From: Botryllus schlosseri
Taxonomy: Eukaryota
DNA length: 64,000 nt
NCBI GenBank assembly: GCA_051294905.1
Contig: CM119373.1
Span: 29,388,001-29,452,000, forward strand
Direction: 5' to 3'
The notes below the pieces were generated by a model that was not told the DNA's origin, searched no databases, and saw only the letters and a list, made by a program, of their open reading frames with translations. Below are positions 54,215 to 62,880 of this stretch, piece by piece; position 1 is the first letter of the stretch; each line of letters begins with the position of its first letter. A program made the translations under genes and the position numbers.

Positions 54215-55484
54215 ATATGGACAAGTTCATGAATGCTATTGTTTTCATGTATGTATATAAAGCGCTAGGTATTAACGGTCAGGATCCCTTATGTTGCACA
54301 GTGTGCATAAGGTATATAACTTAATGTTTCAAGGTTCATGGTTTATTTGATGTTTATTTTGTCGTAACTGCTGCTTTGTGATATTGTGATATAGTTAATA
54401 TGCCTGTTATAACTGGCTTACGGGATATAGAATGGTCAAGAATCTCTATTGCGTCTTGCGTAGAGTAATTTTATTGTCTTTTGTCACACGGTGAATTGAT
54501 TTCGTCACGATCACAGTTTATTAAAAGGTTTGGTCAACCTACATTCAGAAATGCTTCACAGTTTGTACTGAGTATTGCTAATATGTTGACTGCAAATGAT
54601 GTTTAATACTGTAGGGCCTCGTCATCCCTACAGTATGTATATAAGGCGTTATACACTGCTACGCCCTTAACTTTAAGCAGGACCCTAGGGACCTTATCAC
54701 CCCCTAGTTTAACCAAAACAAAATCCTAGATGCTTTAGGTGCGAATGGTTATTGAGAAAAATAATGAAAAACAATATAAAATATTATAAAATCTTGAACA
54801 ACTATACCATTAAATTAACTAAATAATGAACACTAAAACCTGTTTGAACAATCAGCAATGCCTGTATTAAGTGGCATCTTAGTTAAGGGTAGTATCATGC
54901 GGTCCGATTAAGAGGATCATAGTGATTTTAATTGCACTGAAGACATGACGTCCTTAATGTTGATATGTTATATTAAAATTGATTGAAACATTATAATCGC
55001 AAGTATACTGACGAATGTTATGATGATTGCATTGATTGGAGCTGCTTTTCGGCAGGACAGGCCGTCGCATGTATTATATGCGTAAACAAACCTTGGAGTA
55101 TTAAAAATGTTTGTTAATTGTGTATGATGATGTATAGGTTAAACCGTGCCTTGTGTTATAATTGATGAATGATGTATATGCCAATTTAACCAAGTTTTGC
55201 ATGGAGTTACCTCAATTCCGTCTACATGATTAATGATTGGAGTATTTGGTTGTATTAAGGTTCTAGATTATCAGTAGATAAGGGTAGATTAAAATTCTGG
55301 ACCCCAGGGTCATTGTCAACTTGAGAAGAAACAATCCTACAACTGTTGTTGCTCCAATCACCATTTACAGACGTCGTCAAGATACTAAAGCAAACGAAAG
55401 GCAACGTTTTACTAGGAAGTAACCCGAACAAGTGTGGACTACTCGCATAACAATCGTTGTGGAGCTGCACTTTAAAAACAAAAT
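54215..55484 (+). promoter_or_regulatory. Single LTR-like or large intergenic promoter-leader region upstream of the PBS
   Basis: 1.27 kb non-coding; two GTATGTATATAARGCG TATA-like motifs (about 54249 and 54633); 11-bp-stem hairpin at 54606-54636; ends ...AAACAAAAT before the PBS; no second copy seen in the window. Confidence 0.5.
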
Positions 55485-55501
55485 TGGTGGCCAGTACGGG
55501 G
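55485..55501 (+). promoter_or_regulatory. Primer-binding site complementary to the 3' end of tRNA-Ile (AAT type)
   Basis: TGGTGGCCAGTACGGGG is the reverse complement of CCCCGUACUGGCCACCA, the 3' end I recall for metazoan tRNA-Ile(AAU); 325 nt upstream of gag. Confidence 0.85.
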
Positions 55502-55531
55502 CACTTTCGGTGTTCAGACGTTGACCAATCG

Positions 55532-61600: not shown

Positions 61601-62072
61601 CCATTGTCGACATGAGCCTTGTGACAAATCGGTGGATGGGTACCATCCCTGGGAAGATATTTGTGAAATCATTAAAATAAAGACCGGGGTGGAAATGAAA
61701 ATGGAAGAATTAAAAGACGTCATGAAAAGGTGCGACAGGGCAATTGTCTCAGAAAATGGATTGGCGGCTGCCCACGGGCATACACAAGGGAAGCCTCCTC
61801 AATATTGTAAATATGAAGGTAACGAGGTATTGTACCACATGACGACTGAAAACAATGCAAGACAGATAATGTCTAAAGGCATTGAACGAATGAAAAGGAG
61901 ATTCATTCATTTGAGCAAAACGATAACGAAGAAAAGCAAAAAACGTAATGTGGTAATTTGCATGAAAGCAGCAGAGATAAGAAATGAAGGGCTATTACTG
62001 CTGCAATCAAACGTGAAAAATGTGGTATTGTGTGAAGGCCCTATACCACCAACAGTCATACAAAAATTGTAA
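58653..62072 (+). CDS. pol: Pol polyprotein: aspartic protease, reverse transcriptase, RNase H and a Tpt1/KptA-like domain; no integrase
   Basis: FLADTGS (58848), LDLKKAYFH, MPMGLK, YIDD (60618-60629), TDASD (61083), ELKAL, TDN, DGLSR; then CRH...GHT...LYHMT...GIERMKRRFIHLS...IPP. Expressed by frameshift; the start shown is the ORF-track GTG. Confidence 0.93.
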   Translation: MLIDPVNQLPDKLIFQHIKTLHNSSLPLFTFLDMPDDPLQPDFTELFGSQLLYLVDTATGTKFLADTGSIPNLIMKNVIITKYPQSWEERQPIDMELTGIGGSSQVDSFVVIDFDGLSVPFVTGSGVPLNIIGLKWIEEVQQLPGITAEFKTPSNANVELSLVSLLEENLCDQSNGTKVGSSISYTVTDDGLMDAANQSSVKRKIAAGASTEMEMTTGASDELKLATSVTHNPWESIGVETGIPADTVNEDVERGIPAGVKLDLHEKTGPKCLRGCTCPNNLNDSAHSCMTTATVMSTFPEGSNEAAIAGQPDTHPEMSDKESGDFRMHVSPEKGSPAENESVGVAVGAGTRRDQRPTSKDLALSPPTPTIRSSRISNQPMAGPVTTYVLQKDTHPRVKTELENLCAQSVALAKLPYKPPDLTSPENTIISDDVWKAIYAPFASELEDLRSHLGGPQTMKYKCDIELKDPSTKPFVSGPYNLKGEGQAKALKEAVDNFLDLGVIERGFAEWKLAIFVVPQKMNERQKQEDGWKQAWRVVQNLQPLNAAIKSIEVPPPLVPDVKQLAQGREVLSLLDLKKAYFHMDVTERSKQYMGIAIKGMHVRWRKMPMGLKTAVALWSANMQECVVKPITEKYQQHMKQVGRADEENATPMEAYIDDIFLSTKTVEDHLLLLRMVFEQLAKMKLTVSINKCFIGKRRVNLLGATLTGKEIEVQPERIRALRELSPPHNVYELRGWIGALRYISEHIPELSLKLAKFDALTGKVPATQGRMTPVLWTDELLQDFKMAQAALDDTKVLYHLDPNLPIFVETDASDVGFGSIIFQTEKGCKPPFEKVYPIAYYSQKWVTPAAKAYDPCTKELKALKDSVEKWQSMLRALPFTIITDNTGVFGLLKRMTDKAKHPSPKPLIQRWLNHLAGFQINEVIHLSTMQVFTSDGLSRSYWMEMAAGEEDPHVWATIPKKKSVQDQQKMPRPEKIQHKLMAHCRHEPCDKSVDGYHPWEDICEIIKIKTGVEMKMEELKDVMKRCDRAIVSENGLAAAHGHTQGKPPQYCKYEGNEVLYHMTTENNARQIMSKGIERMKRRFIHLSKTITKKSKKRNVVICMKAAEIRNEGLLLLQSNVKNVVLCEGPIPPTVIQKL
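61575..62069 (+). other. RNA 2'-phosphotransferase (Tpt1/KptA, PTS_2-RNA)-like domain at the Pol C-terminus
   Basis: Tpt1 motifs in the expected order and spacing: RH (61608-61613), DGY, DRA, AHGHT, LYHMT (61830-61844), MKRRFIHLS (61890-61916), S-N...VVL...IPP. Confidence 0.8.
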
Positions 62073-62880
62073 ATACATATTGGCAGAGTGTAACTAAGTA
62101 TTATAAGACGGGTAAACGGACAAAAAAAAACCTATAATGGGAGTAAACGGAAAAAACCGAAACCTCGTAACTAGAAAAAATGCTGAGTCAGCACATTTTA
62201 AGCTCGTGTGGAAAAACGAGAGAAAAAGAAAAAAAAAGAAATAGGGGTTTAAGTGATAAAAGAAGGTAATTGAATTAAATGATCATGGGGAATCATGATG
62301 AATGACGTCAAGTATACACACGAGTAAAGCGGGCATATACTGCATTAGTTCCCAATGTTTTGTTGTTCGACCAATCTAGTCCCCAGTAAATTCCATGATA
62401 GTGTTCAGCGTTCGTGACCACATTTTCTTGAAGCGAATGCACACTTGTACCTGAAAGCATGAGGAATATGGATCGTCATTCATAAACATATGTCAATTAT
62501 GTGGTAGATGAAGGCGCCAATGGCTGCGACTATGTATGGGAGGTGACAGGGTGACTTCTAGGGGAGAAAATTCAGATACCTTTGACCTTAGTCGTAATTT
62601 TGTAGTAAAACTATGTTTAAAATTCATTCAATCCGAGCACCCATCCAACCATACGCCCCCAGTCTACAATACCGCAAACCATTTCAGCGCAATCGCTGCA
62701 AAGACGTAACTCGCTAAGTACATGATGTCTACAGATCACTATGTGATCATACTGAGAACCAGGACTACATGCCAGTACTGTATGGAGATATATACCAGCA
62801 AGGTGGTAGTGGATTATCTTCATGTGTACCACCTTCTTGTGCCTTCATGGAGTGGTACGCGAAAACAGTAAAGACCACAG

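Follow-up and report, generated by a model that had tools for sequence, protein, structure and literature searches.

Introduction

Capture of a DDE enzyme by an integrase-less reverse-transcribing virus is a step that has long been inferred for the origin of elements with long terminal repeats (LTRs). The Caulimoviridae and pararetroviruses have no integrase, use tRNA-primed reverse transcription on a terminally redundant RNA and have a circular map, and a circle step is also part of the life cycle of the DIRS/YR elements. The known reverse-transcribing elements integrate linear two-LTR DNA by an integrase of their own, or use a tyrosine recombinase, or have no purposeful integration (PMC12440569). 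Merlin DNA transposons are defined by GG termini, inverted repeats of 24–462 bp and target-site duplications of 8–9 bp (PMC8101967), and for the virus-derived element Teratorn an excision to a circle is proposed but not shown (PMC10175614). In the present work we analyse an element of ca 38 kb in the genome of Botryllus schlosseri that combines features of these systems. It lies in a window of 64 kb (G000:C3:29388001-29452000 of genome G000); the window means this whole stretch, and positions are counted from its first letter.

We consider it likely that in this element an RNA crossing the two ends is reverse-transcribed and that the product is integrated by an IS1595/Merlin transposase. The evidence makes it similarly likely that the element is an enveloped, integrase-less, reverse-transcribing one with a circular map, which is stored in the chromosome like a prophage. 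Searches of open-licence PMC and bioRxiv, mostly at the level of listings, gave no description of the combination (subscription papers and Repbase lie outside this coverage), and it probably represents a new kind of element.

Results and Discussion

Termini and Transposase

The element spans 24695-62352, which gives exact positions to the ends that an earlier reading of the window, made from its letters and referred to below as the sequence-only reading, had put at approximately 24.7 and 62.3 kb. It is bounded by two identical 8-bp target-site duplications (24687-24694 and 62353-62360). The left terminus (24695-24717, plus strand) begins with GG and the right one (62330-62352, plus strand) ends with CC, and the two are imperfect inverted repeats that match at 16 of 23 positions.

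The breakpoint comparison of genomic copies that the sequence-only reading had suggested was carried out by scoring 40 of 48 left-end and 40 of 143 right-end candidates. All 39 other scored left-end matches begin at the equivalent of 24695 or at most 11 nt before it, while on the right side all 39 stop at the equivalent of 62352 or at most 12 nt after it. Every terminus listed starts with GG. The break is thus fixed, which indicates a dedicated attachment site of Merlin-type inverted ends and not illegitimate integration. Both ends were found for 22 copies among the 30 + 30 loci listed; their lengths are 8–52 kb, mostly ca 40 kb. The duplication is an exact 8-bp one in 18 of these 22 copies, has 9 bp in another and contains one mismatch in yet another. 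Termini and duplications fit the Merlin definition given above. At one locus (L156, a copy of 8 kb), empty-site reads from two RNA runs and one DNA run skip the whole copy with 9 shared letters, and this insertion is therefore polymorphic. A separate observation concerns G000:C5:10285861-10300094, where two right ends with the same flank are found 14 kb apart, which is likely a local duplication or an assembly repeat.

Close to the left end is DDE1 (24950-25933, plus strand), which encodes an IS1595/Merlin-type transposase (PF12762, DDE_Tnp_IS1595, E 3.6e-10) with the triad D157/D220/E259. A splice-acceptor-like site is located close to its start, and a similar tract, read by eye, is present in the subfamily B that is described in the next section. 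The second DDE gene (46993-47946, plus strand) is also a DDE_Tnp_IS1595 match; it is ca 40% identical to DDE1, has the same catalytic triad intact, and is carried by the majority of full-length copies as well as by part of the B copies. There is furthermore a family of short copies that share one common deletion of the reverse transcriptase (RT) and RNase H region and have no DDE1 match at their loci. Exact duplications are present in 6/6 of them, and five of those six have a match to the leader and the primer-binding site (PBS).

Two Permutations of One Gene Order

In the window, the long open reading frames (ORFs) on the plus strand follow the order DDE1, env1, env2, a gap of ca 8 kb, an accessory cluster, a non-coding leader of 1.2 kb, a small membrane ORF, gag and pol. 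The ORFs and Pfam matches thereby bear out the sequence-only reading that pol is at the right end, DDE1-env at the left end and the accessory genes upstream of the leader. That reading had also predicted that joining the ends would give the run pol-DDE-env-env2, and precisely this run exists naturally and uninterrupted in a sister subfamily, subfamily B. Seven loci are of this type, with DDE-env-env2 within a few hundred bases after pol. The order is here non-coding, accessory, leader, gag, pol, DDE, env, env2, and the genome is opened after env2.

All four subfamily B copies for which both ends are available are bounded by GG...CC termini of their own and flanked by exact duplications of 8 bp, and none has an LTR; the left ends of two more copies are beyond the DNA examined, and the ends of a pol-DDE-adjacent copy at 76% (C1:8.89 Mb) were not located. 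The right sub-terminal sequence of subfamily B is homologous to 62135-62201 of the window. The end module thus occupies two different points of one circular gene order.

It is also of interest to consider the remoter subfamilies. At 21 loci, with 84% to 52% RT identity, the DDE gene is 11–73 kb upstream of pol, an order that is taken from the coordinates only. No DDE gene was found after pol in nine stretches, namely eight of the 21 loci and one unassigned locus. In a quick RT tree, built without named reference RTs, the pol-DDE-adjacent copies are nested among lineages with the order of the window, and the pol-DDE-adjacent order therefore need not be ancestral. The attachment point has thus shifted, probably on several occasions, and recombination limits what a single-gene tree can say about this.

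Primer-Binding Site, Spliced Leader and Probable Start of the RNA

The PBS (55485-55502, plus strand) is complementary, over a length of 17–18 nt, to the 3' terminus of the tRNA-Ile(AAT) genes of the host; the 64-kb window itself contains no tRNA gene. Its first base is 30.8 kb inside the left end, in agreement with the ca 31 kb of the sequence-only reading. In subfamily B, the sequence aligned with this site matches the host tRNA-Thr(CGT). In a copy on C4, position 32570 is joined exactly to the first base of the PBS. Between 57.3 kb and 32.5 kb, counted across both ends, this copy is 93.7–99.8% identical to the window, and in 5' gag it is 82–91% identical. Such a joint would be expected if, on an end-crossing RNA, the tRNA had misprimed at a 6-nt look-alike located after env2. 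An alternative is a deletion at the DNA level at a 10-nt microhomology; of 753 such microhomologies, 2 end at the PBS.

Upstream of the PBS, all on the plus strand, there are a U3-like region (54215-55235) with TATA-like words at 54253, 54312 and 54637, a spliced-leader exon (55236-55259) and a U5-like block (55260-55484). The exon is an exact 24-nt host sequence, and it would provide the 5' end of the RNA and a short terminal repeat (R). The U5-like block occurs as two haplotypes and has a short conserved hairpin. As a further observation, this hairpin (ca 55290-55320), located ca 45 nt past the leader, is kept across otherwise divergent subfamilies.

A candidate polypurine tract (62218-62241, plus strand) is the longest purine run of the element and ends 111 nt before the right end. 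A tract of 11–32 nt that ends 83–111 nt before the right end is present in 30/30 right-end loci, and in subfamily B it ends 75 nt before the right end in 3/3 copies. No LTR-sized direct repeat was found in the element or in the window. The sequence-only reading had stated that the leader is present in one copy. This holds for 54215-55500 in the window, the sole other match being a piece of 71 bp with 77% identity at 53636-53706. The TATA-like word at 54637 is not unique; it is also present at 39798, 54253 and 54312.

The start of the RNA can be located by the reads at L156, where 5289 reads of one RNA run (X23) and 262 of another (X21) end at one spot, which is the 24-mer 55236-55259. These reads have an adapter on the 5' side, presumably the template-switch adapter, and on the 3' side many of them run on into differing sequences, as is typical of a trans-spliced leader. 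The 24-mer is probably an ascidian spliced leader. The genome contains 393 matches to it, and it is unchanged in all subfamilies inspected. We also considered the exon to be a gene for the spliced-leader RNA, which was rejected since the bases that follow it vary (GT, CT, AT, CC, AC, GC, TT, TG). Five matches begin at the 5' edge of the exon, and the up- and downstream flanks are shuffled between lineages. Over ca 55160, the RNA in run X21 is sense, with 349/350 reads in one direction.

The RNA thus most likely starts at the spliced-leader exon at 55236. The sequence-only reading had placed the start near 54.67 kb, and this was rejected, since linkage is intact there (four-gamete values of 0.26–0.30); that position may be a promoter upstream of the trans-splice site.

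Some side observations on the leader can be added here. The 24-mer is found in other repeats as well, and some pairs are ca 1.8–1.9 kb apart with matching flanks, such that they resemble LTR pairs with the leader as R (L177/L178 at C1:40613847 and 40615671; C2:25733026 and 25734975; C5:5782250 and 5784066). At two loci of different subfamilies (L170 and L162), the final 11 nt of the leader are repeated just after the exon, which suggests that slippage recurs during the first strand transfer.

Ancestry Break and Scars of Reverse Transcription

We now consider how the parts of the element are inherited relative to each other. The ancestry test included the 17 copies, from ca 29 close RT loci, that have all three regions; segment g3 was covered in 7 copies only and was excluded from the group means. 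The distance matrix of the U3 part (54800-55235) has a correlation of only 0.17 (p 0.19) with that of U5 (55260-55485) and of 0.22 with that of 5' gag, and yet it predicts its upstream neighbours (0.67 and 0.51). The ancestry break, a rho of 0.17 across 25 bp, is accordingly located at the leader exon. The left block (25900-26450), on the other hand, correlates with 5' gag at 0.82 and with RT at 0.91 (p 0.0003), which are ca 29–34 kb away, and with the accessory region at only 0.10. The sequence-only reading had named, as a finding that would speak against it, that the left and right blocks come from different families; they instead share ancestry. The group means are 0.54 versus 0.25, and the difference is positive in 99% of the subsamples.

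The same picture emerges from four-gamete incompatibility with a sliding cut, which is 0.27 at 54800 and increases to 0.83 at 55200; shuffling gives 0.77. Cuts in pol give 0.38–0.72 and a cut across the two ends gives 0.64, and linkage across the ends (0.64, r2 0.148) is the same as between adjacent segments of pol.

The haplotypes of the block from the leader to the PBS are 65–69% alike between and 91–100% within groups, and they assort apart from flanks that are 85–100% alike. The divergence begins at the 3' edge of the leader. This block would correspond to the unit expected for the strong-stop product. A haplotype scan of 22 of 24 copies, with two short ones excluded, gave three length classes and 9–10 haplotypes just 3' of the PBS, where a length-variant scar is present, and just 5' of the leader, while every other window in 55425-55733 has a single length. 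Directly before the leader there is a G in 15/24 copies; such a G is the expected trace if the cap is copied.

Proposed Mechanism and Alternatives

The leader is present once, and the first strand transfer needs the leader exon at the 3' end of the RNA, preceded by the sequence found upstream of it in the element. A single RNA can provide this only if it passes over the right end into the left one, and for this reason a circular template is favoured. In the mechanism that we propose, the two ends would be joined either when the transposase excises an integrated copy or as part of an episomal circle. A bacterial IS1595 member, ISApl4, forms circles (PMC12561309). An RNA of slightly over unit length would then be made, which would begin with the spliced leader at 55236, continue through U5-PBS-gag-pol, the joined ends and DDE-env-env2-accessory-U3, and terminate at the leader exon or shortly beyond it. 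The RT would prime on tRNA-Ile and jump at the leader exon, while the plus strand would be primed at the polypurine tract close to the right terminus, with closure at the PBS. This would yield either a gapped circle or a linear copy with terminal redundancy. Finally, cutting at the inverted ends and integration by the transposase would lead to copies that are all opened at the same point.

It is necessary to point out that several results weigh against this proposal. The end-to-end junction was found at none of the 15 joints listed (232 more are outside the list) for runs X23, X21, X8 and X1 on L156, in a read search that covered 3–6% of the RNA runs at an element depth of mostly <4, and 0/71 right-end motifs in the DNA examined have a left end next to them. 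The linkage between the ends is not above the general linkage of the left end to pol, and is thus no proof of adjacency. In the ancestry test, which samples the parts to either side of 26.5–53 kb, the U3a segment still correlates with some core segments at 0.42–0.58. A template of 38–40 kb is very long for an RT, 2/22 paired copies have no duplication, and one short copy that lacks both leader and PBS still has one. Finally, either of the two DDE genes may be the one that acts on the ends. Since the junction was not seen, the circle is something that we infer. The claim of the sequence-only reading that the integrated molecule was a circle is thus supported indirectly, by the fixed ends, the two permutations and the scars, but not by an observed junction.

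Another option is that two RNAs are made, one from the leader to the right end and one from the left end to the leader, and that the RT jumps between them. No excised circle would be transcribed in this case, and the transposase would still integrate the product. This would account for all scars and for the ancestry break without excision, it is in line with the lack of a junction in the RNA, and also with the fact that the purine tract goes with the right end in both permutations. However, the ends are inverted and not direct repeats, such that they offer no base-paired jump, transcription would have to begin precisely with the outermost base of the left terminus, and the PBS-joined copy on C4 is explained more simply by a single RNA. 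We therefore regard this option as unlikely. The element could also be a giant cut-and-paste Merlin DNA transposon with captured retroelement cargo, in which reverse transcription only shuffles parts by cDNA-mediated gene conversion. The DDE triads, the inverted repeats with GG at their ends and the duplications of 8 bp fit Merlin, the duplication at the short copy without a PBS is readily understood in this way, and the junction has not been observed. On the other hand, the scars at the PBS edge and the switch of the PBS to another tRNA require a completed second strand transfer, and the ancestry break sits at the leader exon. Moreover, the RT-less family retains leader, PBS and gag, for which an element moving as DNA alone would have no use, and on a linear map the second permutation requires a tandem pair and several deletions. 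This makes the cargo explanation improbable.

An ordinary two-LTR provirus that was later rearranged by the host, or two unrelated elements that happen to adjoin, can account for nothing beyond the unusual gene order. Dozens of dispersed copies have the same ends and order, the same order is found by coordinates in the 21 loci down to 52% RT identity, the left block shares its ancestry with pol, and an LTR is found in neither permutation. The sister copies with two LTRs that the sequence-only reading had considered as a possible refutation were thus not encountered; the copies have no LTRs and the same fixed ends. The common ends and duplications exclude a rearranged two-LTR provirus, and the explanation as a whole is hardly conceivable. 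The preferred reading thus remains that an end-crossing RNA is reverse-transcribed and its product inserted by the transposase.

Coding Content and Surroundings

All genes described here are on the plus strand. The env1 gene (26000-28579) encodes a class I fusion-like glycoprotein with a signal peptide, a basic cleavage site, a hydrophobic peptide and a transmembrane segment. It has no Pfam match, and its Atlas leads are spike S2/fusion glycoproteins at 0.89–0.90 with low recognition. Like gag, env1 is named by sequence features and Atlas leads only. The env2 gene (28652-32068) is a paralogue, as judged from the cross-match between the two, and has a Thr-rich stalk and a transmembrane segment. 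The env-like ORFs are intact in most copies.

The following ca 8 kb (32069-40200) are poor in long ORFs, with only two ATG ORFs of >70 aa, and contain patches homologous to the left part of subfamily B; it is in the counterpart of this interval that subfamily B is opened. Rfam gave 0 matches across 24600-62400. The accessory cluster (40208-54214) encodes LRR, second DDE, IAP and E2 ubiquitin-conjugating enzyme proteins and small paralogous ORFs; the Pfam matches are to LRR, BIR/RING and E2 domains and DDE_Tnp_IS1595. The IAP has three BIR domains and a RING, a weak Bcl-2-like match is also present in the cluster, the small paralogue sets are at 50949, 51443, 53123 and 53717, and the content of the cluster differs among copies.

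A small membrane-protein ORF (55451-55801) lies upstream of gag (55762-58659), which has a capsid-like region and a CCHC knuckle (zf-CCHC E 5e-4, narrowly short of the cut-off; Atlas leads Retrotrans_gag/Ty3 capsid at 0.92). The pol gene (58614-62072) encodes a protease-like motif, recognised from sequence only, followed by RT, RNase H and a Tpt1/KptA domain. Neither Pfam nor the comparison with solved structures gave an integrase match in pol. The RT matches to solved structures are weak, the best being 8r0s, an "enzymatic polyprotein" (E 6e-18), which we take to be a cauliflower mosaic virus protein, followed by Ty3 and Pr125Pol entries. In the integrase slot of pol there is instead a Tpt1/KptA RNA 2'-phosphotransferase domain (61580-62072), which is retained in the distant relatives P0001, P0002 and P0004 and in the short RT-lacking family; Tpt1 has 0 occurrences in PMC6338049. 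Among the ORFs scanned, there was no match to a tyrosine recombinase.

Outside the element, there are two intronless CD20/MS4A-like host ORFs upstream (23103-24056 and 10637-11464, the first of which was domain-scanned). A Harbinger-type DDE_Tnp_4 transposase ORF (4326-5246, minus strand) is unrelated to the element. To the right of the element lies a repeat with inverted ends resembling a miniature inverted-repeat transposable element (ca 62881-63763), and related ends are found at 14211-14240 and elsewhere.

Relatives and Comparison with Known Systems

The close RT relatives found in a search of representatives are a small set, mostly single records, with 37–69% identity. Three of the 79 loci listed from a metagenome search stand out (34–51%). 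One locus (L209:1928-10967, contig Ga0210059_1010986) has gag, an integrase-less pol and an env of 1338 aa that is related to env1 (E 4e-8), with no transposase match and no LTR in its 13.9 kb. This single contig hints, without being a proof, that the lineage was integrase-less and enveloped before the transposase was gained. The same contig has a perfect 27-bp inverted repeat at 1713-1816, upstream of gag. Among viral contigs, seven pattern matches were obtained, none of which is a relative. The element Troyka was also considered as a candidate and rejected, since it has LTRs and 3-bp duplications.

In this family, a circular map that is reverse-transcribed from a tRNA primer appears to be linked with a cut-and-paste transposase and its fixed site of attachment. 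If this is true, it would be a living example of how an integrase-less reverse-transcribing virus can gain heritable integration by a captured DDE enzyme. Reverse transcription as a circle, opening at a fixed site and pasting by the enzyme of a DNA transposon would, within the literature covered, be an undescribed route for such elements. The two natural permutations, the dozens of recent copies and the polymorphic insertion make the mechanism testable. Further surprises are the 24-nt spliced leader that would serve as the R repeat and the Tpt1 domain in the integrase slot.

The likeness to Merlin/IS1595 lies in the DDE_Tnp_IS1595 domain with its triad, the GG termini, the short imperfect inverted repeats and the duplications of 8–9 bp (PMC8101967). 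However, the ends of the present element enclose 38–40 kb with gag, RT, two env-like genes, an internal PBS and scars of reverse transcription, and the available text of the Merlin paper does not contain the term "reverse transcriptase". The scars, the PBS switch and the ancestry break argue, indirectly, that the DNA-only movement of Merlin would not be sufficient here. The element resembles Teratorn in its logic, in that a viral genome would be inserted at inverted ends by a cut-and-paste transposase that the virus has captured; Teratorn is a herpesvirus with a DNA polymerase and a piggyBac transposase (PMC10175614), whereas the present element is reverse-transcribing, has Merlin and has two opening points.

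Like the Caulimoviridae, the element has a polyprotein without an integrase, and the circular DNA and terminally redundant RNA that we propose for it would be similar. It differs in that it resides in an animal, has env-like genes, is five times larger, and shows site-specific opening with duplications and not accidental integration. The gag-pol-env gene set, the PBS ahead of gag, the candidate polypurine tract and the strand-transfer scars are shared with the Retroviridae and the env-carrying Metaviridae (errantiviruses, PMC13524379; Tor, PMC4402516). A Ty3/retro-type RT and RNase H are present, while the capsid is an Atlas lead only and the knuckle is narrowly under the cut-off. In contrast to these groups, the element has no LTRs, Tpt1 in the place of the integrase, inverted ends and a permuted integrated form. 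The DIRS/YR elements are likewise reverse-transcribing elements integrated by an enzyme other than a retroviral integrase (PMC12440569), but here this would be a DDE transposase and not a tyrosine recombinase, and there are 8-bp duplications, a tRNA primer site and env-like genes. The nearest lead in the literature covered is the spiretroviruses (bioRxiv 10.1101/2024.03.25.586562), which are retrovirus-like with a spike-like env, and whose authors ask whether they are circular. Their 19 listed entries have 7–17 kb and none is from a tunicate; the labels Merlin, IS1595 and Tpt1 are absent from the searchable parts of the supplements.

The final comparison is with phage lambda, whose mode of integration the proposed route resembles. 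On balance, we lean towards the view that the element is a new animal reverse-transcribing virus of a temperate, lambda-like kind. It would have an enveloped, pararetrovirus-like genome of 38–40 kb that replicates via a circle, its enveloped nature being read from the env-like genes. The host spliced leader would provide both the cap-proximal end and the strand-transfer repeat, and a captured Merlin transposase would integrate, and probably excise, the genome at a movable attachment module, the ancestors having been integrase-less enveloped elements such as that on the metagenomic contig.

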